From NCBI GenBank assembly GCA_041666205.1, contig JBAYHI010000001.1:90894-154893 (forward strand): a stretch of 64,000 bases of DNA. The letters are read 5' to 3'. The stretch comes from Patescibacteria group bacterium. Its GTDB lineage: Bacteria; Patescibacteriota; Patescibacteriia; UBA9934. How positions within the stretch are numbered: the stretch's first letter is position 1; each line of letters starts with the position of its first letter. The notes under the pieces are model-generated. The model did not search any database. It was given only the letters and a program-made list of their open reading frames with translations, and was not told where the DNA came from. A program made the translations under genes and the position numbers. Shown here in pieces: positions 9,419 to 60,236 of the stretch.

Positions 9419-12400
9419 ATGGCATATAAATTAAACACACTCAAGAGCACGGATTTTGACTCCATTCGCCTTCGTTTGGCCTCACCAGACATTATGCGAT
9501 CTTGGTCGTATGGCGAAATCACAAAGCCAGAGACCATCAACTACCGTACACAAAAGCCAGAAAAGCATGGATTGTTTGCGGAAGAAATCTTTGGGCCAAC
9601 CAAAGATTGGGAATGTTATTGCGGCAAATACAAGAAAATTCGTTATAAAGGCATTATCTGCGATAAATGTGGCGTTGAGGTCACACAAGCGGTTGTTCGC
9701 CGTGAACGCATGGGGCATATTGAACTGGCGTCACCCGTTTCCCATATTTGGTTTTTGCGAGGCGTTCCGTCAAAAATCGGTACGATTCTTGACATGAGCG
9801 TTCAGTCACTCGAAAAAGTCATTTATTTCTCAAGCTTCATCATTACCGATATCGATGAACAAGCACTCGCACAAACCATCGAGCAGGTTGAAGCCGAATA
9901 CAAGTCAAAAAAGAAGATGATTGCCGGGGAAGAGAAGCGAGACATGATGCGTGTTGAAGAGAAATTCAAAGACGAGCCAAAAAAATTGATCGCAGAAAAA
10001 CAGCAAATTGCTGAAATTACGGAAAAGAAGCTCGAGGAATTGGAAGCAGATTTCTTGAGCGTGGATCGTGATCTCAAAGAGATGAAGATCATGAAGATCA
10101 TTCCAGAAACCACTTATCATGATTGGTCGATTCGATTTGGACACATTTTCAACGCGGGAATTGGCGCAGAAGCGGTTTTGAAGCTTCTTGAGCGCATTGA
10201 TGTTCCAAAAACGATCGAATTACTCGATAAAGAAATCGAAACAACGAAATCGCGCACAAAGCACGATCGTATTTTGCGACGTCTCAAACTCCTTCATAGC
10301 TTGGAGCGCACACAAATCAAGCCAGATTGGATGGTCTTGCGCGTGCTTCCAGTGATTCCAGCGGATTTGCGTCCAATGGTGCCACTCGATGGTGGACGAT
10401 TCGCAACATCAGATTTGAACGATTTGTATCGACGCGTCATCAACCGTAATAACCGCTTGAAGCGATTATATGCATTGAACGCGCCGGAAGTCATTACTCG
10501 AAACGAGAAGCGCATGCTTCAAGAAGCGGTTGATGCACTCATCGATAACTCGGCACGCGCGGCAAAAACCGTTGTCGCAGCCACTGGAAAGAAGCGTCAG
10601 CTCAAATCCCTTGCAGACATTTTGAAAGGAAAACAAGGTCGCTTCCGTCAGAACCTTCTTGGAAAACGCATCGACTATTCAGGGCGATCGGTGATTGTGG
10701 TTGGACCTCACTTGCACATTGATGAATGCGGACTTCCAAAGAAAATGGCACTTGAACTCTTTAAGCCATTCGTTATTTCCAAGCTTATTGCACGGGAATA
10801 CGTTCACAATATTCGCTCAGCCAACCGATTTATTGATTCCGATCGTCCAGAAGTTTGGGATATTTTGGAAGAAGTAACGGCTGATTCATTTGTGCTCTTG
10901 AACCGCGCTCCAACTCTTCACCGTTTGGGTATTCAAGCATTCCGTCCACTCCTCATTGAAGGAAAAGCTATTCAAGTCCACCCACTCGTTTGTGACGCGT
11001 ATAACGCTGACTTCGATGGAGACCAAATGGCCGTGCACGTTCCACTCACAGAAGAGGCTCGACGCGAAGCAAAAGAAATCATGCTCTCTATTCGCAACCT
11101 TTTGAAGCCATCTCACGGTGGGCCGGTTGCAACTCCAGGAAAAGATATTGCATGGGCAAGCTACTTCTTGACCATGGTCTTTACGCAGCCAGATGAAAAG
11201 AATTTGAAATCCTACGGATCTCCTGAGGAAGCAATGTATGCATGCGAAATGGGTAAAATCAAACTCCAGGATTGGATTCGTGTGCGACGCAATGGGGAAC
11301 TCCTCATTACAACTGTCGGACGTTTGACTGTGAATGCATTTTTCCCAGAAAAAATCGGGTTCATCAATGATGTTATTGGGAAAAAGCAACTCGCAAACAT
11401 TGTGCGCGACATTTTGGAGTTCTACGGACAGGAAAAAACAGCCCGAATTCTTGATGAAATCAAAGACTTAGGGTTTGCGAGCGCCACAAAGTTCGGATTT
11501 TCATGGGGCATGGGCGAACTTCCAGATATCAAAGAGAAAAAGGCGATTATTGAAGAAGGAGATCGAAAAGTACAGGAAGTGGAAAGCTTCTTTGCGCAAG
11601 GGTTGCTCACGCAAGGGGAGCGCCACGTACAAATCATCAAGATTTGGACTGATGTAAAAGATCAAATTGAGGAACTTTCAAAGAAATCGTTGCCTCTTGG
11701 AAGCTCAGCGCAAACCATGATTGAATCCGGTGCACGTGGTGCATGGGGTCAGCTCACACAAATGGTTGGAATGATCGGAATGAAAGCATCTCCATCGGGC
11801 GACATTATCGAGCTTCCAGTGAAATCTTCCTTCAAAGACGGCGTTGATGTGCTTGAATTCTTCATCTCGTCTCACGGTATTCGCAAAGGTCTTACCGATA
11901 CGGCTCTTAAGACTGCAAACGCCGGGTACCTCACGCGCCGTTTGGTTGATGTTTCACAAGATGTCACGGTCCATGATGAAGATTGCCAAGACGAAGAGGG
12001 CGTTGTCATGACACATAAAGAATCCGAAGAAATTGGGGAGCCACTCCTTGTTCGCATTCTTGGTCGCTACACACTCGATGATATCGTCATGCCGGGCGGA
12101 CGCAAGGTGATTGTAAAAGCAGGCGAACTCATCAAAGAAGATCATGTTCGTGAACTCAAAACTGCCAAGAAAGAACTTGATTCTGCACACGTTCGATCGG
12201 TCATGACTTGTAAAGCACGTCGAGGAATCTGTCAGAAGTGCTATGGCTATGATTTGGCCTACAATAAACTCGTGAAACTCGGTACATCGGTTGGAATCAT
12301 CGCAGCTCAATCCATCGGGGAGCCTGGTACTCAGCTCACCATGCGTACATTCCACACCGGTGGTGTTGCAGGAAAAGACATTACGCAAGGGTTGCCACGT

Positions 12401-20338: not shown

Positions 20339-20385
20339 AATTTTTAGAAAACTTCCTCGCAATGGGGAAGTTTTTTTATTGTCTA

Positions 20386-20430
20386 AAAACGCGAAGACTC
20401 CCGGCCAAGGAGTGGGGGAGTCTGAGGGGG
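20386..20430 (-). repeat. 45-bp hairpin/terminator repeat, copy 1 (3' of gene 20436-20840)
   Basis: Minus strand: CCCCTCAGACTCCCCCACTCCTTGGCCGGGAGTCTTCGCGTTTTT, i.e. stem GACTCCC...GGGAGTC plus a T-rich tail. A second copy at 20893-20937 differs by one base. Confidence 0.65.
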
Positions 20431-20435
20431 ACGTG

Positions 20436-20840
20436 CTAGTGGTCGAGTTCCGCCAACACGTTTGCCACGAGTTTGGCGAGCACCTGGCGCCGCAGGTCTG
20501 GGTATGAGTCGGCGATACTCACGAGGAGCCAGAGGGGCATGCCTTGGTGGTCGATTATTGCCCTGCAGACCTCGATCCTCAGATTTTTCGGTGTGAGGTT
20601 CCCGAAGAGGCGTTCGTTCACCTGGCCTCGATTGGCCCACCCTCTATTGAGGATCAGATTCATGGATCTTATCCCGAATCGGACGTCTCCGGCTCCACTT
20701 CGCATGATGAGCCACAGTTCATCAGCTGACGCGTCAGATCTACGTAGCAACGCATCGGCCATCTGTGGGGTACATCGGCCTTCTAGTACCCGGATCGTTA
20801 GCACGCTGGTTTCGAAATCGGCGAAGTTTTCTTCACCCAT
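20436..20840 (-). CDS. hypothetical protein, GC-rich island A, paralog 1 (about 134 aa)
   Basis: ATG at 20840 preceded by AAGGAGGAAT (SD). The codon usage is GC-rich and unlike the neighbours. The ORF-track 5' extension reads through the upstream repeat and is probably not translated. Confidence 0.5.
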   Translation of the reverse strand: MGEENFADFETSVLTIRVLEGRCTPQMADALLRRSDASADELWLIMRSGAGDVRFGIRSMNLILNRGWANRGQVNERLFGNLTPKNLRIEVCRAIIDHQGMPLWLLVSIADSYPDLRRQVLAKLVANVLAELDH

Positions 20841-20892
20841 TGTGAATTCCTCCTTGTTCAATTTTACAGATTGCCGTGGATAAAAACAACCC

Positions 20893-20937
20893 AAAAACGC
20901 GAAGACTCCCGGCCGAGGAGTGGGGGAGTCTGAGGGG
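20893..20937 (-). repeat. 45-bp hairpin/terminator repeat, copy 2 (3' of gene 20951-21355)
   Basis: Near-identical to 20386-20430, with a single A/G difference. Confidence 0.65.
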
Positions 20938-20950
20938 GGTTTGAGACCAT

Positions 20951-21355
20951 CTAGTGCGATGAAGCTTCCCATCGGAGCCTTGCCATGGTGCGGATGATGG
21001 TCGCCTCGGCTTCGTCGCGAAGCTCCGGAAATTCCTCGAAGATGTAGCCCAAGAGTCGTAACCCTGGGTCGAAGAGTTTGTCAGTTGGGCTTGCAGCCTT
21101 CGTGATGAGCCATCGTGCGACCGCGAGTCGCAAGGGGCGCACTCCATTCCATGCGTAGTTGTGATCGTAGAAAATACGCACGAAGAGCATCAAACACTCT
21201 GCTTCGTCGGCCCAGTTGTGGCGAATAAATTGTGCTTCCTTGAGGAGCTCGCCAAGCGCTTCGAGTCGCTTTTCAAGCGACGCCTGTTGGTCCCGAACAG
21301 TCTCGCGCAAACGATCTTCTTTATTATGGTCGTACAAGATGTGCCTCCGGGTCAA
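20951..21355 (-). CDS. hypothetical protein, GC-rich island A, paralog 2 (134 aa)
   Basis: By-eye alignment to 20436-20840 suggests distant paralogy: ADE(L/A)..L, NRGWANRG vs HNYAWNGV, YPDLRRQ vs FPELRDE near the C-terminus. Confidence 0.5.
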   Translation of the reverse strand: MTRRHILYDHNKEDRLRETVRDQQASLEKRLEALGELLKEAQFIRHNWADEAECLMLFVRIFYDHNYAWNGVRPLRLAVARWLITKAASPTDKLFDPGLRLLGYIFEEFPELRDEAEATIIRTMARLRWEASSH

Positions 21356-21383
21356 TTTAACCAGGGAATGTCTGGAAAATCAA

Positions 21384-21418
21384 CCCTCCTTTGCTCCGTA
21401 GAACGGAGCTTCGGAGGA
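21384..21418 (+). repeat. family-2 structured repeat copy between island A and the 16S terminator
   Basis: CCCTCCTTTGCTCCG-TAGAA-CGGAGCTTCGGAGGA. Confidence 0.55.
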
Positions 21419-21593
21419 TTATTTTTACTGAATGTCTTTTTGTAAAAATATAAATCTCCCTTTTGGGGAGTTTCTTATAACTCTAATCGACAATCTACAA
21501 TTTAGAACTATGTGATTACAACGTCTTATTTTCACAATTCCCGAAGGAATTATGAATCGACTTAATCATCTTGTAAAAAGATGAAGTTCCCTA

Positions 21594-25606: not shown

Positions 25607-28081
25607 TTACTGATGCGCTTCAGGCCCTCCAAATACACCCATATCGTTTCGGGTGCCATCCGGGTCGTTATATGCACTGGATGGGTTTCCAGCGTCTGTA
25701 CCGATACTGCTGGCTGCGAGACGTAGGTTACTATAAGCGGACGTGAACGTTGCTGCAAGTGGGATATCTCCGGTTCCTGCGGGGATTGTAACCCAGCTAT
25801 TTGCAGGCACAGGAGTGTAGACAAGGTTATATTCCGAGATTCCGGCAGCCGCCATAGAAGTATAGATGCCGTATTTGAATCCCTGAATAACATTGTTAAA
25901 TGCAAGGAAATTATTCGTTGGATTTGCATCGGAGTAAATGCCACTTACGGACCTGACACCCGCATTAGGGTCGTACATCGTATTATTGGCAATGATGATT
26001 CCAACCGAATTTGAGATATACACGCCATTTGGCGTGAGACTGGTGGAAAATGACGCATCGAGAATATTATTTTTGATTTGTGAGCCGTAGCCATTGAGGC
26101 AATATACCAGCGCTGATGTGGCATTCTTGATTGTGAACCCTTGCAATGTGGAACTCATGCCAAGTGTGACAGCACGCGCGGCTCCACCACCATTGAGGGT
26201 TACATGCTCAGCCGCTTCTCCAACCAATGAGACGCCGTCTGGCACGGTCAGCGCTCCAGAATACGTTGTGCCCGATTCAACGTAGACGGTTTCTCCAGAA
26301 CTTGCCGCGGCAAGTGCGCTTGCAACGTTTCCACTATAGTCGCTCGCAAATACCACGTCGCTGTTTGAGACAACCATGTCTGCTGTATTGCTCCAATCGC
26401 TGCATCCCGCGGTATTGCAGGCCTTGACGTGGTAGAAATATTCCGTGAGCAATGTTGTAGATGTTTGACCAAGAGTTGAGAGCATTACACCAGCAGAACA
26501 CCATCCTGTTGCGCTTGGGAAATCGCTTTGCGTATCCCATTCAAAACAGTAATACGTGGCTCCAGAAGATTCTGTCCATCCAAGATTGTATGCAGTTCCG
26601 TCAATCACGTAGGTGCCCGGGTCAGTCATAGTTGGTGCTGCGGGAATGCTAACCGGCGTCACGGTGATCGTTGAGTCTTCTACATTGCTCCACGCGCTAT
26701 TGCCGTAGGAATTACTTGCGCGAACACGCCAGTGATAGGTGGTTGATGTGGCAACGGTGAGGGAGCTCGTATAGGTTGTGGAGGCACCGTTATAGGCGAC
26801 TGTTGGACTAGAAAATGATGAGTTTGTATCGCGCTGAAGCTCATAGAGCGTGGCGCCACTGGGGCTTGTATAGGTGATTGTAAACGATGCCCCGCTCGCA
26901 ATGGGGCTCCCTGGGCCGGTGAGTACGGGTGCATCTGGAACCGTTGCGGGTGTGGATGATCCAGCTACAGTCAAATCAACCACGTTGCTCCATGCACCGT
27001 GCCCGATTGCATTGCGCCCTTGAACGCGCCAGTAATACGTTGTTGTGGATGATGGGGAAATGGAATGCGTGTAAGTGGTGCTGAGGCCTGAGTAAATTGT
27101 TGAGTATGTTGAGAATGCAGGGTCGGTTGATTGCTGGAGTACGTAGGTTGTAACTCCTGTGACCGCTGAATAGCTCAGGGTGAATGAAGCACCGGCAGTC
27201 GTTGAGGATCCTGGATCAGTAAGAACTGGAGCCGTTGGCACACCAACCGTACTTACGGTAATGTCCACGACATTACTCCAACTGCTTGTTCCAACGCCGT
27301 TTGAGGCGTTCACGCGGTAGTAATAGGTGGTTGTGGACACAGGGACAATATAGTCTGGCGTGGTTGTGCCGGATCCGGAAATAATATTGATTGGATCAGA
27401 GAACGAGGAGTCGTCGTCGCGTTGCAAGGTGTAGCGCGTGGCGTCGCTCGATGAGGTCCAAGAAAGCGTGAAATTTGTACCCGACGATACGCTCGATCCT
27501 GGGTCAGTGAGTGTTGGAGCGGTAGGGATTGTGCCAACAGGATCGGTATATCCTAAATCTGTATCAATGGTTGGCGTTGAATTTTTTTGTCCGGTTGGAT
27601 CGTATTGTGCAGTACTAGTGATGTCGGATCCGATGGAATAATGAGGGTAGAATGTGTCTGGAAGATCGTCGATTTTTGTATTCCACGCCGCGCCATAGAG
27701 GTTTGAAGCAAGCGATTCGGTTGTGACCCAGCGCAAAATACTTCCTCGCTCCACAACGTAGACTTTTGGCACGGTGATGAGTTTCACCATGCGCACCCCG
27801 GGACGATAGGTGACGTTGCCCACCAGTCGCATGGAGGCAAGCGTGGCGTCCGATACGGTATGAACGCCTGAGAAGTCGCTATACCAGGTGAAATAGGTTT
27901 TTTCGTTTGGGAAATTATAGCGATTGCCGTCGCTTGAATAATAGTAGACCGTTGAAAAACTGCCTTTGATTAAATCTCCAGCCGTTGGAGTGATTTCGGT
28001 TGCGTGCACGGACGTTGGAGTGAGTCCGAGAACACTCCCGAGTATCGCAACTGTGGCGATGAGTGAAAATAGACGTTTCAT
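25607..28081 (-). CDS. large secreted surface protein: signal peptide, about five fibronectin-III-like repeats, C-terminal right-handed beta-helix (pectate-lyase-like)
   Basis: 824 aa, Ser/Thr-rich. Shows N-terminal MKRLFSLIATVAILGSVLGLTPTSVHA, an internal repeat unit DPGSS..S(G/A)..F(T)L(S)(W/Y)...YY(Y/W)RV.A.N..G.(S/G)(A/S)WSNVVD., and NNxxxD-type beta-helix rungs at the C-terminus. Confidence 0.75.
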   Translation of the reverse strand: MKRLFSLIATVAILGSVLGLTPTSVHATEITPTAGDLIKGSFSTVYYYSSDGNRYNFPNEKTYFTWYSDFSGVHTVSDATLASMRLVGNVTYRPGVRMVKLITVPKVYVVERGSILRWVTTESLASNLYGAAWNTKIDDLPDTFYPHYSIGSDITSTAQYDPTGQKNSTPTIDTDLGYTDPVGTIPTAPTLTDPGSSVSSGTNFTLSWTSSSDATRYTLQRDDDSSFSDPINIISGSGTTTPDYIVPVSTTTYYYRVNASNGVGTSSWSNVVDITVSTVGVPTAPVLTDPGSSTTAGASFTLSYSAVTGVTTYVLQQSTDPAFSTYSTIYSGLSTTYTHSISPSSTTTYYWRVQGRNAIGHGAWSNVVDLTVAGSSTPATVPDAPVLTGPGSPIASGASFTITYTSPSGATLYELQRDTNSSFSSPTVAYNGASTTYTSSLTVATSTTYHWRVRASNSYGNSAWSNVEDSTITVTPVSIPAAPTMTDPGTYVIDGTAYNLGWTESSGATYYCFEWDTQSDFPSATGWCSAGVMLSTLGQTSTTLLTEYFYHVKACNTAGCSDWSNTADMVVSNSDVVFASDYSGNVASALAAASSGETVYVESGTTYSGALTVPDGVSLVGEAAEHVTLNGGGAARAVTLGMSSTLQGFTIKNATSALVYCLNGYGSQIKNNILDASFSTSLTPNGVYISNSVGIIIANNTMYDPNAGVRSVSGIYSDANPTNNFLAFNNVIQGFKYGIYTSMAAAGISEYNLVYTPVPANSWVTIPAGTGDIPLAATFTSAYSNLRLAASSIGTDAGNPSSAYNDPDGTRNDMGVFGGPEAHQ

Positions 28082-28123
28082 AGGAAAATTTTATTGCTTT
28101 CAGTATAGCAAAATTTCCCTCAT

Positions 28124-28337
28124 AAAAAAATTCGACGCCCGGCAGGGTGCCGGGCGGGTACGGGGGAGACACGACGGTTGAGACGGCGGGCTAGGTGAAC
28201 CCTGACGGGTGCATCCGACCTCCAAGTCCCTCTTGCGAGGGGTGAATCGACGAGCGGCGATCAGGTGGCGGCGACGCTGGTGGTGTAGGCCAAGGACACC
28301 TCGCGGGGCGCGAATGCACATGCTTCAGCGCATGAGC
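28124..28337 (-). ncRNA. candidate ~214-nt GC-rich structured RNA (promoter-to-terminator unit)
   Basis: Starts about 7 nt after the -10 of the promoter at 28344-28372 and ends at the hairpin GCCCGGCACCCTGCCGGGC plus U7 (plus-strand 28124-28158). No ORF with a credible SD spans it. It lies directly upstream of the surface-protein gene. Confidence 0.4.
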
Positions 28338-28343
28338 GCGAAA

Positions 28344-28372
28344 ATAATATGCCTTGCGGAAAGAGATGTCAA
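28344..28372 (-). promoter_or_regulatory. consensus-like sigma70 promoter (TTGACA-17-TATTAT)
   Basis: On the minus strand, TTGACA is the reverse complement of 28367-28372 and TATTAT of 28344-28349, in an AT-rich patch inside GC-rich DNA. Confidence 0.5.
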
Positions 28373-28499
28373 TAAAAAGAAGTGCCCGCCGGAGTGCCGG
28401 CGAGCGGGGAGCGGACAGGGGTCCGCTGAGAACGGTGTTACAGTTGCTGGTTGGTCAGCCCGCCACGTCCTCACGATCAAGCGGACGCGGCGGGCGGAG

Positions 28500-28616
28500 C
28501 TAGGACCCGGCGTTGAACACCGCGCCGGAGTCGTTCTGGACCTGGTTGTCGCCGTCGAAGTCGATGTTCAGACAGCGCTTGGACGCCGCGTTGGGCGGCG
28601 CGCGCGAGATCAGCAT
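28500..28616 (-). CDS. candidate 38-aa peptide with strong SD (MLISRAPPNAASKRCLNIDFDGDNQVQNDSGAVFNAGS)
   Basis: GGAGGT lies 7 nt upstream of the ATG at 28616. The peptide sits about 105 nt downstream of the promoter at 28729-28757 and is followed by a hairpin at about 28376-28402. Confidence 0.3.
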   Translation of the reverse strand: MLISRAPPNAASKRCLNIDFDGDNQVQNDSGAVFNAGS

Positions 28617-28728
28617 CTCGGCACCTCCATCAGGGGCGGGGATTTGGAGATCGAACGTTGTTTTTGCCGGCTCTACACCGTTCTGTCCCGGTTCATGCCG
28701 GGCGAGTTCGGTTTGAGCAAGCGCCAAA

Positions 28729-28757
28729 ATATAACCACTTTTTGTGGTTTTTGTCAA
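28729..28757 (-). promoter_or_regulatory. consensus-like sigma70 promoter (TTGACA-17-TTATAT) just downstream of the smc stop
   Basis: On the minus strand, TTGACA is the reverse complement of 28752-28757 and TTATAT of 28729-28734. Confidence 0.5.
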
Positions 28758-28774
28758 GAGCCCATGCCCTTGTA

Positions 28775-31081
28775 TTATCGTCGTGCGGTCGCTCCGTCGC
28801 CGATATCGCTCAAAGAGACCGAAAGCAAGTTTGAAATCCCGTCTTCGCCCATGCTAACGCCAAAAAGCTTGTCAGCCCGCTCCATGGTGGCGCGATTATG
28901 GGTAATGATGATGAATTGTGAGAATTTGCGCAGTTCCTCGAGGATATTGGCGAATCGCACGGTATTGGCTTCGTCGAGTGCTGCGTCTACTTCGTCGAGC
29001 ACAACGAATGGCGAGGGGTGCGTTGCCATAATCGCGCATAAAAGCGCCAAAGAGGTGAGCGCGCGTTCGCCACCGGAAAGTAAATTGAGCGACTTGAGGC
29101 GTTTGCCAGGGGGAGTTGCCAAAATTTCAATACCGGCAATTTCGGTGTGGCGATTTTTGAATCGGCGGATGATCTTTGATGCGATTTCCGTGTCTTGTTC
29201 TTCAAGCGCTTCTGCACCTACTTCAAATGCGCGATCAATTGCCACGTGCATGGCGTCGTCATTTTGTACTTCGGAGGTTTTGAGGAGTTTGCACGATCCG
29301 CCCCCGAATAAAATTGCAAAGTATTTTTGAAATTCAATATTGATTTGGGCAAACGCCTCCTCGCTTTGTTTTGCAATGCGATCCTCGAGCTCATCCACGA
29401 CTTTTTCAGTCTGCTCAATTGCTTCGTGCAAATCATGGAATTGCGTTTGCAAAAATGTTACGCGTTCATTTGTCTCCTTATATTCGGCAATGGTTTCTTC
29501 ATCGATACTTCCAATAAGCTCAAGCTGATGGCGAAGTTGCATGAGTTTGCCACGCGTTTCCTCGGGTGTCGTGTCGCGTTCTGTTGGTACTTGATTTTTG
29601 ATTTCGTCAAAAATTGTAGGATTCTGTTCTTGAATTTCACGTCGCAACCCTTCGAGTCGCGTTTCAACGCGTGCTTTCTCGAGTTCAATACGATTGCTTT
29701 CTTGCTCGAGCAAATACAAATCCGACTGAAGTTTTCGCAAATCACGCTGAAACGCAAAAAGCTCGGTTGGTTCGTGGCTTGTGACGGCTTTTTGCGCTGT
29801 TGTGAGTTTCTCTTCGGCAGTTTTGAGGTTTGCTCGTGCAATATCGGCGTCCGCCTTTGTCTTTGCGACAGTATTCTGAAGTGCTGGGTCAATGGGTTTT
29901 TGCTCAATCGCTGGTCGCGTAAGACGTTCGTGGAGATTTTTGATTTGATTATTGAATGTCTCCAGGCGCTCAAAAAGTGGTTGAACCTCCTCGAATACAT
30001 GGCACGATTTCAGTGAACTCAAAATTTCCTGGTGCTCAATTTTTAGTGAACTAATAATTTGTACAACCTCGTGCATGGGGAGTGGGGGACGAGGCGTTTG
30101 GCTCTTGAGCGTGGCGACTTCAAGATTTCGCTGCGCTTCAAAAACAGCGTGCTCGGCCGTGCGCAGTGCTTCGGATGCTTTGCGATACTCGTCTTGCAGC
30201 GGTTGCAAGCCATGATCGGGCGTTTGGCGAGCGCGCTCGAGGCGTTCCATTTCCAAAAGTTTCTGGTCTCCAGCTTGGAGTTCGGCAGTTTTTGCATTGG
30301 TATGCGTTTTTGCAACCTGCAATCGACTGTCGATGCCTCGAAGTTCCTCGGAAAGATCAAAAAATTGTGTGCCGTAGTATTTTTTTGAAAGAAGTTGCAA
30401 TTCATTTTCGATCACCTCACGTTTTTCCAGGCGCTTCACCTGTCGCTCGAGTAATCGAAGACGTGGTTCAGCTTCCGCAAGCAATCGCTCAATCTCGAGC
30501 AAATGTTCAGATGATTTTTCAAGACGCAAAAGCGACTGATGACGTTTCATTTGAAGTCCTCGCACGCCGGTAGCATCGTCAAAGAAGAGTTTTCGTTCTT
30601 CTGGCGAGGCAATGAGCACGTGATCGATCATCCCTTGCGCAATAACCGTATAGGATCGCTCACCAATGCCGGCTTCTGCAAGCAAAAGCTGAATATCCTG
30701 GAGTCGTGTGATTTTTCCATTCAATCGGTATTCCGACGATCCATCGCGGTATTGTCGGCGATTGAGTTCTACCTCGTCGTAGTCAACGCTCAAGGCGTGG
30801 TCGTGGTTATCAAAAAGAAGTGTGACTTCTGCGGCGCCTGAACGAGTTTTCCCTTCAGACCCGGAAAAAATCATGTCCTCGCTCTTTTTCCCCCGCAGTA
30901 ATTTCATGGATTGCTCACCTAGGCACCAACGAATCGCGTCGGCAATATTGGATTTCCCTGATCCATTTGGCCCAATAATCACCGTGAGGGCATGTCCATC
31001 GCCTTGCGATCGCGGCAAATCCAAAACCGTCTTTTTGGCAAATGTCTTAAATCCTTGGATTTCCATCCGAATGAGTCGCAT
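28775..31081 (-). CDS. smc: chromosome partition protein SMC (short form)
   Basis: N-terminal MRLIRMEIQGFKTF...GPNGSGKSN (Walker A), long coiled coils, and C-terminal LSGGERALTSLALLCA...VVLDEVDAALD (signature plus Walker B). Confidence 0.85.
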   Translation of the reverse strand: MRLIRMEIQGFKTFAKKTVLDLPRSQGDGHALTVIIGPNGSGKSNIADAIRWCLGEQSMKLLRGKKSEDMIFSGSEGKTRSGAAEVTLLFDNHDHALSVDYDEVELNRRQYRDGSSEYRLNGKITRLQDIQLLLAEAGIGERSYTVIAQGMIDHVLIASPEERKLFFDDATGVRGLQMKRHQSLLRLEKSSEHLLEIERLLAEAEPRLRLLERQVKRLEKREVIENELQLLSKKYYGTQFFDLSEELRGIDSRLQVAKTHTNAKTAELQAGDQKLLEMERLERARQTPDHGLQPLQDEYRKASEALRTAEHAVFEAQRNLEVATLKSQTPRPPLPMHEVVQIISSLKIEHQEILSSLKSCHVFEEVQPLFERLETFNNQIKNLHERLTRPAIEQKPIDPALQNTVAKTKADADIARANLKTAEEKLTTAQKAVTSHEPTELFAFQRDLRKLQSDLYLLEQESNRIELEKARVETRLEGLRREIQEQNPTIFDEIKNQVPTERDTTPEETRGKLMQLRHQLELIGSIDEETIAEYKETNERVTFLQTQFHDLHEAIEQTEKVVDELEDRIAKQSEEAFAQINIEFQKYFAILFGGGSCKLLKTSEVQNDDAMHVAIDRAFEVGAEALEEQDTEIASKIIRRFKNRHTEIAGIEILATPPGKRLKSLNLLSGGERALTSLALLCAIMATHPSPFVVLDEVDAALDEANTVRFANILEELRKFSQFIIITHNRATMERADKLFGVSMGEDGISNLLSVSLSDIGDGATARR

Positions 31082-31133
31082 AAGCGGTACAAGTATAACA
31101 GAAATTTTTATTTTGCTGTAAAATGATTTCCAT

Positions 31134-31520
31134 ATGCAAATCAAATGGCTTTTTGTTCTTCCGCTTTGCCTCCTTTTTGGGGCGGGCTGTTTTTCTAGCT
31201 CAGACGTGACCATCGATTATACGGATCCAAGCACCTATGAAAATGGGATGCCGATTGCGTATTACAATGTTTGGGTCGAGTCCGACGGGTTTGATGTGAC
31301 GTATATGGCTGTAAAACCCGGGCAGACGGTGCAGATTGATTTTCAGTGGGTGGATGGATTCCATACATTCGTGATCGATGAGTTCGGCTTCCGAACCGAG
31401 ATCGTGGAGGGTCAGATTGTGGAATTTGTAGCGCCCGATGCACCGGGGACATATCGCTATTATAGCGACGTAGACGATGCGGGCACGGGATTTGAAGGGG
31501 AACTCGTGATTTTGGAGTAA
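31134..31520 (+). CDS. lipoprotein, cupredoxin-like domain
   Basis: Lipobox LLFGAGC after a signal peptide; GFHTFVIDEFG and an overall beta-rich pattern resemble cupredoxin/EfeO-like folds. Confidence 0.45.
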   Translation: MQIKWLFVLPLCLLFGAGCFSSSDVTIDYTDPSTYENGMPIAYYNVWVESDGFDVTYMAVKPGQTVQIDFQWVDGFHTFVIDEFGFRTEIVEGQIVEFVAPDAPGTYRYYSDVDDAGTGFEGELVILE

Positions 31521-37598: not shown

Positions 37599-37612
37599 AA
37601 ATTCATGATTTT

Positions 37613-37651
37613 CCGTAGGGGCAGGTCGCGACCTGCCCGTACGAAAACGAT
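37613..37651. repeat. family-1 GC-rich palindromic element (CCGTAGGGGCAGGTCGCGACCTGCCCGTACG)
   Basis: A near-perfect 15-bp inverted repeat at the left boundary of GC-rich island D. Confidence 0.65.
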
Positions 37652-37739
37652 TTTCGTTTTCAAAAAAAAAACGACCCCTCCGGCCGAGACGTGGTGTGGC
37701 GGAGGGGCAGGGGGAGGGGCGCCCCGGGAGTGGGCGGAG

Positions 37740-38270
37740 CTACATGCCGGCGTTGCCCAGGGGGCCGAAGGGAATCGGATCGGTCGCGAAGGCTGGCGGG
37801 CGAAGCTTGAGCAGGGCGGAGCACAGTGATCGCTCTTCGGTGAGTACCTCGGTTCTTCTCTTCTCCATCGTCTGGATGGCGAGGTCGATGAGTGCCTGGA
37901 TCTTGTTGCCGAAGTACCACGAGGTTTCTCCGATCTTCATCACGAAGACGATCTCGTGGTTGTTGTCTCGCTCTGCGACGTAGATGAACTTTTCCTCGTC
38001 CCGTAGACCGCCACGGTAATACGTGACGATCTGTTCGGGCATCACAAGCCTCGCGATGACGGTGAATTTGAAGTAGGTCTTGTCCACGTCAAATTCAGTG
38101 GGGAACATCTCGCTGAGAGGCAGAGACACAGGTCCTCCAATATCCAGCAATTGCCGGAACGGTGGTGAACGGTAGGCGGAAATGGGGAATTGGTCAAGGT
38201 CTTGAGGTGCGTGAACAAAAACTCCCCATATTCGCACCGTCTTTTCAATTCTTGGAGAGAGCCAAGTCAT
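37740..38270 (-). CDS. hypothetical protein D1 (176 aa), GC-rich island D
   Basis: A long ORF with GC-rich codon usage, last gene of a co-oriented run; no recognisable motif. Confidence 0.45.
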   Translation of the reverse strand: MTWLSPRIEKTVRIWGVFVHAPQDLDQFPISAYRSPPFRQLLDIGGPVSLPLSEMFPTEFDVDKTYFKFTVIARLVMPEQIVTYYRGGLRDEEKFIYVAERDNNHEIVFVMKIGETSWYFGNKIQALIDLAIQTMEKRRTEVLTEERSLCSALLKLRPPAFATDPIPFGPLGNAGM

Positions 38271-38331
38271 GAATAAACGGCACGAATGTGGGGAGTTTGA
38301 TTTTGCAGGGAAGCGAGCGCTCGAAGAATGG

Positions 38332-38610
38332 TTAGTTCTCGAGCACTCGCCAGAAGATCGCGTCGACGATCTCGGTGACCGGACCGCCCTCGTATTCGGA
38401 GAGGTGGTCGATTTCCGAGAGAAGGCGGAATTCGATCTCCGCGCCGTTTTCCTCGATGAGGATTAGGCACGAGAGACTAATCACCTCGCGATCGTCGAGC
38501 AGATACCCTGCGCCGCAAGCGCAGGAATGCCGGTACTCGTTCCCGTACTGCTTGGGGAGCCGAAGCTCCCCGTGGCAAAACGGGCAAACGAACGGGGGCC
38601 ACTCGGGCAT
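38332..38610 (-). CDS. hypothetical small zinc-ribbon protein D2 (about 92 aa)
   Basis: ATG at 38610 preceded by GGAGGATCCC (SD); CPFCHGE...HSCACG gives a CxxC...CxC candidate zinc ribbon. Confidence 0.5.
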   Translation of the reverse strand: MPEWPPFVCPFCHGELRLPKQYGNEYRHSCACGAGYLLDDREVISLSCLILIEENGAEIEFRLLSEIDHLSEYEGGPVTEIVDAIFWRVLEN

Positions 38611-38752
38611 GGGATCCTCCGAATTTTTAACTCTCAAGACCTACGATTGCTCGCGGGTCTATTCGAGTCCCGGATGTTTAGTACATCCGGGGAGACGACC
38701 TCCAAAGTTGAAGGATTTTGCCACAGATCGCTGTGGCCCGGTTTCGGTGGGG

Positions 38753-39298
38753 CTAGAAGTCGTTGTCGCCGTCTTCCTCCTCGACCGTGTGGCGGTGGAT
38801 GACCACGACCTCGTCGGGATCGCATCCCTCGCCACACTCCACCGGGGTTTCTTCCTGCTCCTCAGTGAGCGGGAATTCCCTTTGGATGCGTTCGGAGTCG
38901 ATGCCAGCGGCCTCGGCGCGGTCTCGCGCGGAGGAGATCGCATGCCACGGGCCGGCGTCGATCTCGACCTCGAGTTGCATGCTGGAATTTTGGGGCTTGC
39001 ACCACACCAACCGTGCTTTCGACGATCCGCCCCCGTATTCGACATAGTAGTATCCCGGACCCTTCCACACGAATTCGATGGGGGCAGGGCCGTGCTGGGG
39101 GTCGAAGTTATCCTCGTCGGCCTCAGCTGCTTCGAACGCCGTCTCGACGGCGACGAGGATCGAGCACGGGTCCACCTCGGTGAGCATGAAGTGCTTGGGG
39201 GCGAGGCCCCCGAAGCGACCGGCCGCGGCCTTGAATGCCACAACCGCTTCAGTGAGCTGCTCGACGCCATAAACCACCCGCAGAATTTTCTGGAACAT
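38753..39298 (-). CDS. hypothetical acidic protein D3 (181 aa)
   Basis: ATG at 39298 preceded by AAGGAGAT (SD); the acidic C-terminus contains ECGEGCDPDE. The longer overlapping Ser/Arg-rich ORFs on this and the other strand look like GC-driven artifacts. Confidence 0.5.
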   Translation of the reverse strand: MFQKILRVVYGVEQLTEAVVAFKAAAGRFGGLAPKHFMLTEVDPCSILVAVETAFEAAEADEDNFDPQHGPAPIEFVWKGPGYYYVEYGGGSSKARLVWCKPQNSSMQLEVEIDAGPWHAISSARDRAEAAGIDSERIQREFPLTEEQEETPVECGEGCDPDEVVVIHRHTVEEEDGDNDF

Positions 39299-39397
39299 CT
39301 CGATCTCCTTCGAACTCCCATTTTTTTATCCGCTGGGATAGCGGGTTGCTGGATCTCTTGCCTTTGCTCGCTCCGACCCCTCTGGTCGGTTTACAGG

Positions 39398-39451
39398 CAT
39401 CGGCTTGAAAGTCCCACCGCAATCCTTGATTGAATCAAGGACTCTGGTGGG
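39398..39451 (-). promoter_or_regulatory. conserved intergenic element copy 1 (CATYGGCTTGAAAGTCCCAYC...TCTGGTGGG) containing the perfect 17-bp palindrome CCTTGATTGAATCAAGG
   Basis: It shares both ends with the copy at 39986-40042. The palindrome at 39424-39441 sits about 100 nt upstream of D3. Confidence 0.45.
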
Positions 39452-39492
39452 CGGGAAGACGATCGGTCTGCCTTCCCAAGAAGTTGTGCGAC

Positions 39493-39924
39493 TCAGTTGC
39501 AGTCGCTATCGTTCCAGTCGACGCGACCATCACAGTCGTCGTCGATTTGGTTACTGCAATACTCACTTTCTGGACCACCCGGGCGGGTGGTCGCATCGTT
39601 GTCGTTGCAGTCGTCGTCGTTGGCGACGTACCCGATCGGCTGCTCGCACGACTCGAAATCGTGTCGCTGGTCCCCGAAGTCGTCGTTGTCCAAATCGCGG
39701 AACCAGGTTTCTGCGTCGACCGCGTCGTTTTCGTCGATGTTGTCGTCGCAGTCGTTGTCGATTCCGTCGCAGTACTCGTCCGCGTCGGGGTAGACGTCGA
39801 CATCCTCGTCGTCGCAGTCGCCGTCGATCACTGCGTACCCGTCACCGTCGAAATCGGCATATTCCGGGGGCAGTTCCGTGCAAGCGGACAGAGCGAGGAA
39901 CAGGGCGATGATGTTACGGTACAT
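39493..39924 (-). CDS. secreted lipoprotein D4 with Asp/Cys-rich calcium-binding-type repeats (thrombospondin-type-3-like DxDxDGxxDxxD / DCDD motifs)
   Basis: Signal peptide with lipobox LSAC, then repeated DGDGYAVIDGDCDDEDVD, DGIDNDCDDNIDEND and NDDDCNDND blocks. Confidence 0.55.
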   Translation of the reverse strand: MYRNIIALFLALSACTELPPEYADFDGDGYAVIDGDCDDEDVDVYPDADEYCDGIDNDCDDNIDENDAVDAETWFRDLDNDDFGDQRHDFESCEQPIGYVANDDDCNDNDATTRPGGPESEYCSNQIDDDCDGRVDWNDSDCN

Positions 39925-39985
39925 GGCTTCTCCTGAAAGCGGATCTTTCGCTTCTGCTCATTCCGACCGATATGGCCGAAGAAAG

Positions 39986-40042
39986 CATTGGCTTGAAAGT
40001 CCCATCACATGACTCGAACATGCGTTCAAGTAATCTGGTGGG
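39986..40042 (-). promoter_or_regulatory. conserved intergenic element copy 2, with the imperfect palindrome TTGAACGCATGTTCGA
   Basis: Same flanks as copy 1 (GGCTTGAAAGTCCCA and TCTGGTGGG), about 60 nt upstream of D4. Confidence 0.45.
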
Positions 40043-40121
40043 TCCCCGACAGTCGTAGTGAGTCGGGAACACGTTCGCCATTTCACGTAGCCTTGAAACG
40101 GTGATAAAGAGGCTTGAGCTT

Positions 40122-40409
40122 CTAGAGCTCGATCGCGTAGGTCGAGAACGCGTTCCGCATCCCGAGGTTGAAGTCCTCCGGGACCGGGACGCGGGGCAGG
40201 TTGGTCTGGGCCTCGATGACCCGCACCTTCTCCTCACCCCAGACGTGGATGTAGAGCTCGGGCGTCTGGGTCTCGTAGAGCCGCTCGACGCGGGCGCGTT
40301 CTGCTGCCTCGTCGGCCGTTGGCCTGCGGTACACGCTGTGACACGGCTCATTGCCATTGAAGAATTGGATGACGTAGATGGTCTTGGGGGTCTGGGTCGT
40401 CTCTTCCAC
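40122..40409 (-). CDS. hypothetical protein D5 (95 aa, GTG start)
   Basis: GTG at 40409 preceded by AGGAGAGACC (SD); first gene after the upstream promoter/RNA unit. Confidence 0.4.
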   Translation of the reverse strand: MEETTQTPKTIYVIQFFNGNEPCHSVYRRPTADEAAERARVERLYETQTPELYIHVWGEEKVRVIEAQTNLPRVPVPEDFNLGMRNAFSTYAIEL

Positions 40410-40561
40410 GGTCTCTCCTGGCCGTCCAATGCATGGATCGGCTGAAGGGTCTTCCGACTACGAATCAAGAGCGGAGCGCTCAAGACCCAGTCGGAGAACT
40501 GAACGCTCCATTTTGCGAGCGTCGTCGATGCGATGAATGAATCATCGGTTCGCGACGCTTA

Positions 40562-40777
40562 CAAAAAACAGAGCTTTTCCTTATTCTTTGAAAGAAAGAG
40601 GAAAAACTCTGTTTTTCGAGTATCAAACTCGAAATGACCAACTGGGAATTGCTTCCCTTATTGATCTGCCTTGTCACCCCAGGCTCGGGCTCTCTCTTAG
40701 GACTAATGGATTCTACCGGACGTTTCGTGTTTCTTTTAAGCAGTGAATCAACCGTAACTTTCTCTCATCTCAACCAC
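40562..40777 (-). ncRNA. candidate ~216-nt RNA or regulated leader upstream of island D
   Basis: Starts about 7 nt after the TATAGT of the promoter at 40784-40812 and ends in a 15-bp-stem intrinsic terminator (AACAGAGUUUUUCCU...AGGAAAAGCUCUGUU plus U6, plus-strand 40561-40625). It contains the GNRA-capped hairpin GGGAAGCAAUUCCC and no ORF with an SD. Confidence 0.4.
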
Positions 40778-40783
40778 GCATAT

Positions 40784-40812
40784 ACTATACCATAATTTGG
40801 AGCTTTTGTCAA
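40784..40812 (-). promoter_or_regulatory. consensus-like sigma70 promoter (TTGACA-17-TATAGT) between tRNA-Glu and island D
   Basis: On the minus strand, TTGACA is the reverse complement of 40807-40812 and TATAGT of 40784-40789; AT-rich UP-like sequence lies upstream. Confidence 0.5.
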
Positions 40813-40975
40813 CCGTAGAATTTGGCTAAAAGCCTTATTTTAAGCCAAATTTTTAGGTTTTTGGCTAACTTTTGAGGGCGAAAAAGGGCCGGGAATCCGA
40901 ACCCCTATCAATCCGGGTTCGATTCCAGATACGAACAATCCCTCATAGCTCCAGCTTTGCTGGAGCGACGAGGGA

Positions 40976-41050
40976 TGGTGACCCTACCGGGAATCGAACC
41001 CGGATTGCAGGCTTGAAAAGCCCGCGTCCTAACCGTTAGACGATAGGGCC
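40976..41050 (-). tRNA. tRNA-Glu (anticodon TTC)
   Basis: Reverse complement GGCCCTATCGTCTAACGGTTAGGACGCGGGC-TTTTCAA-GCCTG...CCGGGTTCGATTCCCGG-TAGGGTC-A-CCA. Confidence 0.8.
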
Positions 41051-41158
41051 GAAATGCGGGAGTAGAATATGATAATTTTTGGTTTCTGTCAATAAATCCT
41101 TCATAAACGGCAAAACCCTCCTTCGTCCCGTCAAACGGGACTCCGGAGGGCGAGAGGG

Positions 41159-42583
41159 CTAGCGCGAAGTGACGAGGTCATTCCGGCGGTAGACGCGGAA
41201 CGCGTCGTTGTCGAACGACTCCATGGTGTAGTGATCCTGGAGCCACTCGGCGAACTCCGGCCAGGCCTTGAACTTATCGTATCCGCGAGGATCGCTCGCT
41301 TTCGCGGTTACGAAGTAGTCCGGTGGACGCAGTTGCACTTCCGAAAAGAATCGGTCGCGCATGCCACGTCTTGTTTTGGAATCCGATCCCATGAAGAGAC
41401 ACAGGTCGTACTGCATCCCTGTCGCAGGAAGTCTTCCTGTGCGGAACAGCGCGTTTGGCACGTCATCGACGAATGCCAACGGCTGGATCCGCGCGTCGCG
41501 TGGGAGTTTCTCGATCACTCCCATGAGAGACGGCGTTGCGGGATACGCTTCCTCAAGGGCGCGCACATGCGCTTCGTCGCTTGGCACGAAGTACATGACG
41601 GGCCAGGTGAGCGCAAGCCCCACCGCGATCATTCTCACCCCAATCCATTCGAGGCGTTGCGCTGTTTCCATGAGCGCGAGCGATCCGAATGCGACCAGAG
41701 GAATGAAGTGGTAGGGGAACCCTTTATTTTGCGCCACCACGTGGACGATTCCGAGAAGTGCCATGGACCACATCACGTTATGGCGTGATGGCGACCGAAT
41801 GAGCGCGAGCGTACTGACGAGCAGCACGAGCGCCATGAAGGTGAACCGCATCCACATGGGGGTGGACGGCATGAAGCCGTAGGAATGATCCCCGGCGTAG
41901 AACGGCGTCAGCTCAGTCATGGTCCACACGAAGTCGGGCATCACCTGGATTTTTTCAATCCATGCGATGGTGACAACCCAGGGGATGGCAATTCCTGGCA
42001 GCACCCACCACCGTTTTGCTTGTTTGGTCGTGAGCGCAAAGATGGCAAGCGGAACTGCAAACAGGATGGCGTTCACCTTCACGGTTGACGCGTATCCAAT
42101 CAGCAGCCCCGCCATTACCATGCTCGTTTTTCCACGTTTGGCGAAGATGAGCGTAGCGGCGCCAAGGAAGCAGCAGACCACCACGAGCTCGCGCTGCATG
42201 GTGCCGTTGGCTCCAAGAAACATGAGGTGGAACCCGACAAAGCACAGTGCGGGCGCCAGTCGGAAGTTATTTCCGGCCCCAAGTCTCCACAGAAGCCAGG
42301 CGCAGAGCGCAAGCACGAGTTGATCCGCGATGCGGAAACACTCGTCCGCCAGACTCACGGTGAGAAGTGCCGCGAAATAGAGGATGGTCCCGGGCTGGTT
42401 GAACTCGATGAGGACCTTGTAGGGCGTCATGCCCTGCATGATCCACCAAGTGGAACAGCGGAGTTTCTGCGTATCCGGTCCAATACTCATGTGAATGCTT
42501 GCGATGGAGATGGCCCCGAGGAGCCCAATCACCAACGCTGCAAGAATCGTCCACCAATTCAGAAACCGCTTATTGGAATTCAC
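41159..42583 (-). CDS. polytopic membrane glycosyltransferase (GT-C fold, ArnT/PMT-like family 39 type)
   Basis: 474 aa with about 11 TM segments, an early loop carrying an acidic pair (LADE) and a large C-terminal soluble domain. GC-rich codon usage. This is a family-level guess only. Confidence 0.5.
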   Translation of the reverse strand: MNSNKRFLNWWTILAALVIGLLGAISIASIHMSIGPDTQKLRCSTWWIMQGMTPYKVLIEFNQPGTILYFAALLTVSLADECFRIADQLVLALCAWLLWRLGAGNNFRLAPALCFVGFHLMFLGANGTMQRELVVVCCFLGAATLIFAKRGKTSMVMAGLLIGYASTVKVNAILFAVPLAIFALTTKQAKRWWVLPGIAIPWVVTIAWIEKIQVMPDFVWTMTELTPFYAGDHSYGFMPSTPMWMRFTFMALVLLVSTLALIRSPSRHNVMWSMALLGIVHVVAQNKGFPYHFIPLVAFGSLALMETAQRLEWIGVRMIAVGLALTWPVMYFVPSDEAHVRALEEAYPATPSLMGVIEKLPRDARIQPLAFVDDVPNALFRTGRLPATGMQYDLCLFMGSDSKTRRGMRDRFFSEVQLRPPDYFVTAKASDPRGYDKFKAWPEFAEWLQDHYTMESFDNDAFRVYRRNDLVTSR

Positions 42584-42662
42584 GGGAAACCTCGATGTAA
42601 AGGTGCGATGAACTAACGATCCTAGCGCAAAAAATTGAAAAAGTCAATCATTTGCCTAAAAC

Positions 42663-59715: not shown

Positions 59716-59756
59716 TTGAAGGAAGAACCGTTGACATGGGCGGTTCTTTTTGATAT
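59716..59756 (+). promoter_or_regulatory. SOD terminator hairpin overlapping a TTGACA-17-TATTCT promoter
   Basis: GAAGAACCG-ttgacatgg-GCGGTTCTTTTT is a hairpin plus T-run, and the same bases read TTGACA-17-TATTCT, the same hexamers as the promoter at 5694. Confidence 0.4.
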
Positions 59757-59792
59757 TCTCGCGTTTGCCAATAACGGCAGCTTGGAGGTCCT

Positions 59793-60146: not shown

Positions 60147-60203
60147 CTCATCATCGTCTCCCCGTCGCCGACCCTCCTAGGGCCGGCGTCGCTGTTTTTA
60201 TTG

Positions 60204-60236
60204 GCATAATTCCTTGACTTTTTGTCAAAATTATGC
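60204..60236. promoter_or_regulatory. 33-bp inverted repeat GCATAATTccTTGACtttttGTCAAaaTTATGC (candidate operator/promoter)
   Basis: Nested palindromes GCATAATT/AATTATGC and TTGAC/GTCAA, about 70 nt upstream of gene 60305-60784. Two further hairpins (GCCAAT-acag-ATTGGC, CATCTGCC-accttc-GGCAGATG) lie in the 5' UTR. Confidence 0.4.

Follow-up and report, generated by a model that had tools for sequence, protein, structure and literature searches.

Two short tandem units lie on the minus strand of an uncultured Patescibacteria genome, between the gene for the chromosome-segregation protein SMC (smc) and the gene for a large surface protein, and each has its own promoter-like and terminator-like sequences. 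We analysed these units, A and B, within a window of 64,000 nucleotides (positions 90,894 to 154,893 of contig JBAYHI010000001.1; all coordinates below are window positions). We give roughly even weight to the reading that they are two autonomous accessory micro-cassettes of foreign composition, similar to phage morons, at a variable slot in the chromosome. They are a new orphan instance of known things, namely autonomous acquired cassettes and orphan small genes.

In the model that we propose, the micro-cassettes were probably acquired horizontally and landed in a hot spot between smc and rpsP that varies by lineage. The promoter of unit A would be strong and of the sigma-70 type, and its spacer contains a palindrome. 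The leader of about 105 nt, whose second hairpin would mask the Shine-Dalgarno (SD) sequence, would precede an open reading frame (ORF) of 38 codons with an extreme GC content at third codon positions (GC3), followed by three stable 3' hairpins, the last of which would be an intrinsic terminator. Unit A thus most likely expresses an orphan peptide of 38 amino acids (aa), ORF38. Unit B would use its own, equally strong promoter to make a C-rich and largely unstructured RNA of about 214 nt that ends at a strong terminator; this RNA, which retains GGAGGU and a mini-ORF, might be a trans-acting small RNA (sRNA) or what erosion has left of a second cassette gene. Both units would belong to a larger group of orphan genes that are GC-rich and SD-led, some of them also flanked by promoter- or terminator-like sites, in a genome whose native genes do without SDs.

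Strong promoter and terminator motifs in a GC-rich spacer

The stop codon of smc (28775) and the ATG of the surface-protein gene (28081) are 694 bases apart. Within this interval, units A and B are on the same (minus) strand and fill a GC-rich spacer of 634 bases (28124 to 28757). A consensus scan, complemented by reading of the sequence for the palindrome, gave these signals:

28728 to 28757, minus strand: promoter P1, TTGACA (28757 to 28752) followed by 17 nt and TTATAT or by 18 nt and TATATT, an 11/12 consensus match
28733 to 28749, minus strand: palindrome AACCAC-AAAAA-GTGGTT (6-bp stem) in the P1 spacer
28344 to 28372, minus strand: promoter P2, TTGACA (28372 to 28367), 17 nt and TATTAT (28349 to 28344), an 11/12 consensus match
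28374 to 28405, minus strand: terminator T1, stem 28405 to 28384 of 9 bp with 8 G-C pairs, then ACUUCUUUUU
28124 to 28156, minus strand: terminator T2, stem 28156 to 28136 of 9 bp with 8 G-C pairs, then UCGAA and U7 (28130 to 28124)

Promoter matches of this quality are rare: the scan found only five 11/12 matches across the 64-kb window, including P1 and P2. Another is about 30 nt upstream of a tRNA gene. Upstream of the 16S rRNA gene, the scanner scored the -35 box as an exact TTGACA; the raw sequence there is cTTGACAggttt. T1 and T2 are the sole terminator-like sites in the window with 8 G-C pairs and are the two strongest. In a 2-kb region around the spacer, there were 5 promoter-like sites, versus 1.3 ± 1.0 in shuffled sequences. 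Because 11/12 promoters are few and the two terminators are the best in 64 kb, the arrangement is not plausibly due to chance. The palindrome in the P1 spacer is possibly an operator.

An earlier sequence-only reading of this DNA had placed two tandem minus-strand promoter-to-terminator units between smc and the surface-protein gene, and we found all of the features where it had put them. Its consensus promoters (TTGACA-17-TTATAT and TTGACA-17-TATTAT) each match at 11 of 12 positions, with the alternative spacing given above for P1, and its hairpin-plus-U7 terminator is T2, which ends 42 nt before the ATG of the surface-protein gene on the same strand (about 45 nt in that reading). It also described the surrounding DNA as very GC-rich. 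This holds for the spacer, which is 62-70% GC, and not beyond those 634 bp: the window is 48% GC and the flanking genes are about 46-52% GC.

The spacer is real sequence and not an assembly accident, since an independently assembled 288-kb contig from ENA (L161) is identical over the locus (1 mismatch in 22.5 kb). In the annotation of the source, a Patescibacteria metagenome-assembled genome, the surface protein carries the tag WCT24_00605, and ORF38 falls within an 85-aa ORF call tagged WCT24_00610.

As a separate observation, the motif CGCC(C)GGCAY is repeated in the 5' hairpin of unit A (28696 to 28711), in T1 (28384 to 28400) and in T2 (28137 to 28163). It could be a shared protein-binding module, a module derived from duplication, or a by-product of composition. 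We also considered whether units A and B might be paralogues and rejected this, as the similarity in their alignment is confined to the terminator stems.

Unit A contains a small ORF with a strong coding signature

The features of unit A, all on the minus strand, are as follows:

28375 to 28722, minus strand: unit A, predicted monocistronic transcript of about 348 nt, with bounds from P1 and T1
28666 to 28722, minus strand: long irregular hairpin in the 5' leader, present in both the minimum free energy (MFE) and the centroid structure
28618 to 28654, minus strand: leader hairpin that pairs UCGAUCUCCA with UGGAGGU..CGA and masks the SD of ORF38 (MFE and centroid)
28623 to 28628, minus strand: SD sequence GGAGGT, 6-7 nt before the ATG (28616)
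28500 to 28616, minus strand: ORF38, MLISRAPPNAASKRCLNIDFDGDNQVQNDSGAVFNAGS plus stop (exact translation)
28455 to 28498, minus strand: hairpin 1 of the 3' untranslated region (3'UTR), 1 nt past the ORF38 stop, with a stem of about 13-16 bp (folding)
28410 to 28427, minus strand: 3'UTR hairpin 2, AGCGGAC-CCCU-GUCCGCU (folding)

From its GC3, its frame periodicity, a shuffle test, and its SD spacing, we conclude that ORF38 is, or recently was, a genuine coding sequence. Its GC3 is 0.974 (36 of 37 sense codons, plus the stop), versus 0.46-0.49 in the two neighbouring genes. When we shuffled both units 2000 times, none of the resulting ORFs of 30 codons or more reached a GC3 of 0.95; the maximum was 0.90. 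GC at first codon positions exceeds GC at second positions in the minus-strand frame, as coding DNA should, and the complementary plus-strand frame would reverse this order. The GC periodicity opens at the ATG and closes at the stop. In addition, the 3' end of the 16S rRNA in the window retains CCUCC. The sequence-only reading had pointed to an ORF with a textbook SD and a hairpin after it; this stands, with an ideally spaced SD, a GC3 of 0.97 that none of the 2000 shuffles reached, and three hairpins.

We infer transcription and translation of unit A from these signals. The predicted start is near 28722, which leaves a leader of about 105 nt. The predicted fold of the whole unit has z = -4.1, and 0 of 100 shuffles were as stable. 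By segment, the leader (a 106-nt fold) has z = -2.1 and the 3'UTR, with three hairpins including T1, has z = -5.6, versus an unremarkable z = -0.7 for the ORF38 segment. In the modelled structure, the SD-masking hairpin may gate translation of ORF38.

Separately, ten nucleotides in the 5' hairpin of the unit A leader (28675 to 28684) are perfectly complementary to ten in its 3'UTR (28429 to 28438; AGAACGGUGU / ACACCGUUCU). We roughly estimate that chance would give about 0.06 such pairs in 350 nt. Such pairing could circularise the ends of the mRNA.

The predicted peptide is polar and hydrophilic, is rich in Asn and Asp, and has no transmembrane stretch or signal peptide that we could read from its sequence. 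A tryptic digest would yield, for example, CLNIDFDGDNQVQNDSGAVFNAGS. Its segment NIDFDGDNQ seems to resemble calcium-binding loops of the DxDxDG type. We did not find any homologues of ORF38: when 1.84 billion representative proteins were searched exhaustively with HMMER, the only matches were the ORF itself and two others, which we rejected as repeat-protein artefacts (TPR-like and Cys-repeat, each matching in 4-5 partial stretches). There were no matches in Pfam, PADLOC, or NCBIfam, and just one weak match (E = 0.044) in PHROGs. Searches of a word-indexed set of 5.8 billion proteins, either with ORF38 or with the concatenated six-frame translation of the spacer, were empty, but these are weak negatives because the index also missed the identical 85-aa protein (P0001), although the set contains it.

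We considered whether the two units might form a selfish or defence module, such as a type I toxin-antitoxin-like pair, or a precursor of a ribosomally synthesized and post-translationally modified peptide (RiPP) or bacteriocin with an accessory RNA. A small peptide gene does adjoin a small RNA gene, both have strong promoters, and both have a foreign composition; the core-like segment GDNQVQND... would presumably fit a lasso-type ring (Gly1/Asp8). We consider such a module very improbable. Unlike type I toxins, ORF38 is not hydrophobic, and unit B is not antisense to unit A: the units are in tandem, and the energy of the B-A duplex is no better than that of shuffles (-151 kcal/mol versus a mean of -152 ± 7). 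Unlike a RiPP locus, ORF38 has no adjacent maturation enzyme or transporter, and there is no adjacent immunity gene and no match in PADLOC. The eight neighbouring ORFs that we scanned contained no RiPP domains; the immediate neighbours encode SMC and the surface protein. Both the precursor-peptide locus and the toxin/antitoxin-like pair that had been suggested from the sequence therefore find no support.

Unit B resembles no known RNA

Unit B has two features:

28124 to 28337, minus strand: unit B, predicted C-rich transcript of about 214 nt with no convincing ORF, with bounds from P2 and T2
28191 to 28223, minus strand: GGAGGT, 3 nt, and a 7-codon mini-ORF (MHPSGFT*), read from the sequence; the spacing is short

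The predicted folding of unit B is like that of shuffles: z = -0.9 for the whole and +0.3 (+0.26) and -0.6 (-0.61) for its halves. This disfavours a riboswitch-like or highly structured RNA. In a scan of the whole window with Rfam 15 at gathering thresholds, nothing matched in the spacer region. We also scanned 27900 to 29000 with permissive filters and E ≤ 10, using all 4227 models (including 6S, SRP, RNase P, tmRNA, GOLLD, ROOL, HEARO, and raiA). Only chance-level matches appeared (HIV_FE, mir-4526, snoR9, CRISPR-DR9, and isrK, with E of 0.3-9.5, far below gathering). Neither setting matched the TPP (RF00059) or cobalamin (RF00174) models, to which the sequence-only reading had noted a loose likeness, and the scan of unit B that it had proposed identified no family, even at E ≤ 10. 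ARAGORN found no tRNA or tmRNA in the spacer region.

These scans also bear on the idea that unit A, unit B, or both are divergent housekeeping RNAs: the 6S, SRP, RNase P RNA, or tmRNA of Patescibacteria, missed by the models. The promoters are strong, like those of stable RNAs, and the GC content exceeds the mean of the genome, as it does for rRNA and tRNA genes. The neighbourhood of smc and rpsP-khpA-trmD holds ftsY or ffh in many bacteria. Yet none of the four RNAs matched at E ≤ 10, and ARAGORN did not report a tmRNA; unit B is unstructured, unit A carries an ORF that is coding by composition, and the closest relative has nothing at this position. Native composition would be expected of such genes, and foreign composition is observed. 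We find this idea barely credible.

Sequences related to units A or B, or to the ORF38 peptide, were not detected in any of the approximately 170 loci that we fetched or in collections of phages, plasmids, and viruses. In particular, blastn and tblastn against all of the fetched loci found nothing but the identical ENA copy, and blastn in its distant mode, with a 681-bp region as the query, found no match among plasmids and phages. Scans of viral contigs for a back-translated peptide motif, a 25-mer from unit B, and three proteins from other cassettes in the window (described below) also found nothing.

A more serious alternative is that the spacer is a non-functional relic, a decaying fragment of acquired high-GC DNA whose motifs and ORF are leftover or fortuitous and from which nothing useful is expressed. 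Neither the peptide nor any six-frame translation has a homologue, the structure of unit B is at the level of shuffles, short stretches of period-3 GC in its other frames resemble gene debris, and the region is absent from all relatives. However, debris would hardly be expected to contain two 11/12 promoters and the two best terminators of 64 kb, all correctly ordered and oriented. ORF38 keeps its ATG, an ideally spaced SD, and a stop codon exactly where the GC3 periodicity ends, and the AT-rich promoter islands within GC-rich DNA suggest that the signals are maintained. We therefore regard a relic as unlikely, though it deserves consideration.

The slot between smc and rpsP varies among relatives

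We identified relatives of SMC in a larger protein collection (65%, 58%, 57%, and 56% identity) and fetched their contigs. Synteny scans with SMC in collections of genome and metagenome contigs gave best matches of 46-56% identity, with no equivalent GC island downstream.

In the closest relative (L162/L163; SMC 65% identical), rpsP begins 95 nt after smc. The upstream gene order is the same as in our window: AI-2E transporter, HSP20, VanW, ClpP, DHH, cupredoxin, and smc. The junction at the rpsP promoter (TTTTTGCCkTGGCAGGACTTGACA...) aligns base for base with 25552 to 25529 and onward in the window. Relative to L162/L163, what is extra here runs from the smc stop to about 25560 and comprises both units as well as the surface-protein gene and its terminator.

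More distant relatives fill the slot in other ways. In L164 (SMC 58% identical), a TTGACA promoter and a GGAG-led orphan ORF of 98 aa come after smc; next is a gene with its own proximal promoter, whose 378-aa product is homologous to the surface protein (45% identity). The 98-aa ORF is GC-elevated, at 45-50% in a 36% GC genome. That a different orphan ORF occupies the slot there (10370 to 10730 of that contig) suggests that the slot repeatedly receives small cassettes. In L169 (57%), the gene after smc encodes 341 aa, and beyond it lies one for a 997-aa surface-protein homologue (54% identity in the N-terminal part and 42% in the C-terminal part). The other loci (L165-167, L168, and L170) have different sets of genes after smc.

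Thus, the region downstream of smc is a lineage-variable hot spot in which surface-protein genes recur and the two-unit module does not. The sequence-only reading had asked whether the module travels with the surface-protein gene: it does not, as the homologues in L164 and L169 lack both units. That reading had also taken conservation in homologous loci as a test of its proposal, and none was seen, among relatives that are distant (SMC at most 65% identical, and only 57-58% for those with a surface-protein homologue).

We considered whether the spacer and the surface-protein gene might be the template and variable repeats of a diversity-generating retroelement. We rejected this, as no repeat is common to the two.

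The units are probably not dedicated regulators of the surface-protein gene

The downstream neighbour and the region just before it are as follows:

25607 to 28081, minus strand: gene for a secreted 824-aa surface protein with FN3/Ig-like and beta-helix regions
28082 to 28120, minus strand: AT-rich hairpin upstream of its ATG (folding z = -3.2)

The position of unit B raises the possibility that it is, alone or with unit A, a 5' leader, riboswitch, or attenuator, with T2 conditionally deciding whether transcription continues into the surface-protein gene. On the shared strand, 42 nt separate the end of T2 from the ATG, and the scanner gives no promoter in between. By eye, however, we found an extended -10 element, TGcTATACT (28110 to 28102), which the scanner did not report. 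It lies in the loop of the AT-rich hairpin, 20 nt before the ATG, and favours a predicted promoter that belongs to the surface-protein gene itself. A start there would give a short leader without an SD, as in native genes (see below). Read-through from P2 would instead bury the start of the gene in the hairpin (28120 to 28082), so independent expression is favoured and unit B as a leader is disfavoured. The surface-protein homologues of L164 and L169 have no such leader, and the one in L164 has its own proximal promoter. Together with the insignificant structure of unit B and the lack of any matching riboswitch or leader family at E ≤ 10, this makes a cis-regulatory leader improbable.

Known riboswitch and attenuator leaders do resemble unit B in being GC-rich non-coding stretches that end in a terminator upstream of a gene. 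They differ in that unit B has no covariance-model match or significant folding, has its own promoter right after T1, and is followed by a gene with its own predicted promoter. As for attenuation by unit A, ORF38 has no codon run, and what comes after T1 is another promoter and not a structural gene. The hairpin after the ORF38 stop and the arms of T1 share GCCCGCCG/CGGCGGGC-like segments, so that alternative pairing would be possible, as read from the sequence.

Predicted duplexes do not link the units to the surface-protein gene either: for unit B with unit A, unit B with the 5' region of the surface-protein gene, and unit A with that region, the energies are no better than those of shuffles. 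The sequence-only reading had proposed a regulatory pair for the surface protein, but the homologues in L164 and L169 occur with neither unit, and in the closest relative the insert is missing altogether. In our reading, the units do not serve specifically to regulate the surface-protein gene. More broadly, a strong promoter and terminator pair beside a surface-protein gene need not be its regulator.

Two classes of ORFs in the window

ORF38 is not the only ORF in the window with an unusual composition. Native ORFs have a GC3 of mostly about 0.45-0.50 (range, 0.33-0.55). We searched for SD motifs, defined as GGAGG, AGGAG, or GAGGT 4-10 nt before any plausible start. These were present in 0 of 41 native ORFs and in 8 of 9 ORFs with GC3 of at least 0.59 (Fisher p = 1.7e-8). 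Many of the native ORFs have a -10-like box only 10-20 nt upstream of the start, which suggests that native mRNAs may be leaderless or have short leaders. By both composition and signals, ORF38 belongs to the GC-rich, SD-led class.

Two other places in the window have similar arrangements. First, directly downstream of the 16S rRNA gene (20385 to 21446, minus strand), there are two SD-led orphan ORFs of 128 aa (21337 to 20951) and 134 aa (20840 to 20436), with GC3 of 0.62-0.64. Both end in a near-identical terminator, CCCCUCAGACUCCCCCACUCCUyGGCCGGGAGUCUUCGCGUUUUU. Second, 59731 to 60916 (plus strand) contains a promoter, a GGAGG-led ORF of 117 aa, a terminator at about 60155 to 60200, a two-hairpin leader, an AGGAGG-led ORF of 159 aa, and a GC-rich terminator (60897 to 60916). 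The promoter of this 59.73-kb cassette is TTGACA-17-TATTCT with TG, and it is overlapped by a palindrome (GAACCG...CGGTTC). The proteins encoded by these cassettes are orphans, with no significant family in Pfam, PHROGs, PADLOC, or NCBIfam and no viral relatives. T1, T2, and the terminators at 20.4, 20.9, and 60.15 kb all have a C-rich run before the stem and a spacer of 5-6 nt before the U-tract. In native terminators (for example, 25582 to 25557), the U-tract abuts the stem with no spacer.

We also noticed a 5-kb stretch of raised GC (37600 to 42600; GC3 of 0.64-0.79) with SD-led orphan genes and a tRNA gene (40979 to 41050) in its midst. Among its products are a 474-aa membrane protein and a secreted or lipoprotein-like protein of 143 aa whose metal-binding repeats are of the MopE type (PF11617, E = 1.7e-14). 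In L162, the genes on the corresponding flank of the AI-2E transporter gene are different ones, with low GC. We rejected the idea that this stretch is a prophage, as we found no integrase or phage domains.

Comparison with known systems

A phage moron is a unit of promoter, gene, and terminator, of deviant composition, that is inserted between conserved neighbours (the concept of Juhala and Hendrix; PMC4378225). Like a moron, the coding region of unit A is flanked by its own predicted signals, P1 and T1, and its composition is unlike that of the adjacent genes. As for the insertion point, smc and rpsP are adjacent in L162/L163, but the insert here also includes the surface-protein gene, and SMC is only 57-58% identical in the relatives that have a homologue of that gene. 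Unlike a moron, the units are in a Patescibacteria chromosome between core genes (smc and rpsP), with no phage or prophage context; PHROGs gave nothing significant, and phage and viral collections gave no match. Also, unit B has no convincing ORF.

Classical predictions of bacterial sRNA genes look for an intergenic location, a promoter with an intrinsic terminator, and conservation in relatives. Units A and B share with sRNA genes of this kind, and with orphan genes for small proteins, an intergenic position, consensus promoters, Rho-independent terminators, and lengths of 200-350 nt. Unlike typical sRNA genes, neither unit is conserved, and unit B has no stable structure. We know of no Hfq- or ProQ-type context in Patescibacteria. 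Finally, the leader of unit A recalls the SD-masking hairpins of RNA-thermometer-like 5' untranslated regions: its GGAGGU is predicted to pair with an upstream AUCUCC across a 15-nt loop. Unlike RNA thermometers, this predicted leader matches no ROSE, fourU, or other thermometer family in Rfam.

Several points weigh against the view that the units are acquired micro-cassettes. P1, P2, T1, and T2 are predicted from consensus matches only. The repeat search found no convincing direct repeats or att-like sites around the insert, and no mobility genes flank it. With no phage genes in the vicinity, the units fall outside the strict definition of a moron. The likeness among the cassette terminators is loose, except for the pair at 20.4 and 20.9 kb. 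ORF38 could be a non-functional orphan ORF of 38 aa, and unit B has no feature that argues for a function apart from its promoter and terminator. We also found no donor or homologue, so "foreign" rests on composition and on absence from distant relatives (SMC at most 65% identical); it is from these that we infer a foreign origin, and any function of the units is likewise conjectural.

A bolder version of the micro-cassette reading, which we consider doubtful, is that the genome has two expression regimes: native genes without SDs and with short leaders, and a dispersed pool of GC-rich, SD-led orphan genes. Several of the latter would sit in promoter-to-terminator micro-cassettes that land in variable slots between core genes, as with the different SD-led orphan cassette of L164 in the slot between smc and rpsP. 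Units A and B would be members of the pool. ORF38 would be a functional micro-protein, possibly one that binds Ca2+ via its NxDxDG-like loop and is controlled by SD masking, and the product of unit B would be a C-rich sRNA of a new kind that acts in trans. The pair would amount to a counterpart of morons that is chromosomal, independent of phages, and specific to ultra-small episymbionts.

As an orphan accessory insert, the region is of modest importance in itself; the SD pattern around it is more useful. Within one genome of the candidate phyla radiation, SD use cleanly separates native from GC-rich ORFs, and genes of foreign composition, some of them in stand-alone cassettes, seem to fill variable slots between conserved genes. 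If this is true, recently acquired genes in Patescibacteria could be recognized by a simple signature in their sequence. There would also be candidate micro-proteins or sRNAs for interactions with the host, as well as a natural test of how a translation system that does without SDs handles foreign mRNAs that are led by them.

Upstream neighbour and wider flanks

The wider flanks of the locus hold smc, rpsP, khpA, and trmD. The upstream neighbour is as follows:

28775 to 31081, minus strand: smc, short form

This short form of SMC (28775 to 31213 in the window) has about 765 aa, versus about 1180 aa in model bacteria. SMC has 747-800 aa in all of the Patescibacteria relatives that we retrieved, so the short form appears to be a trait of the lineage.

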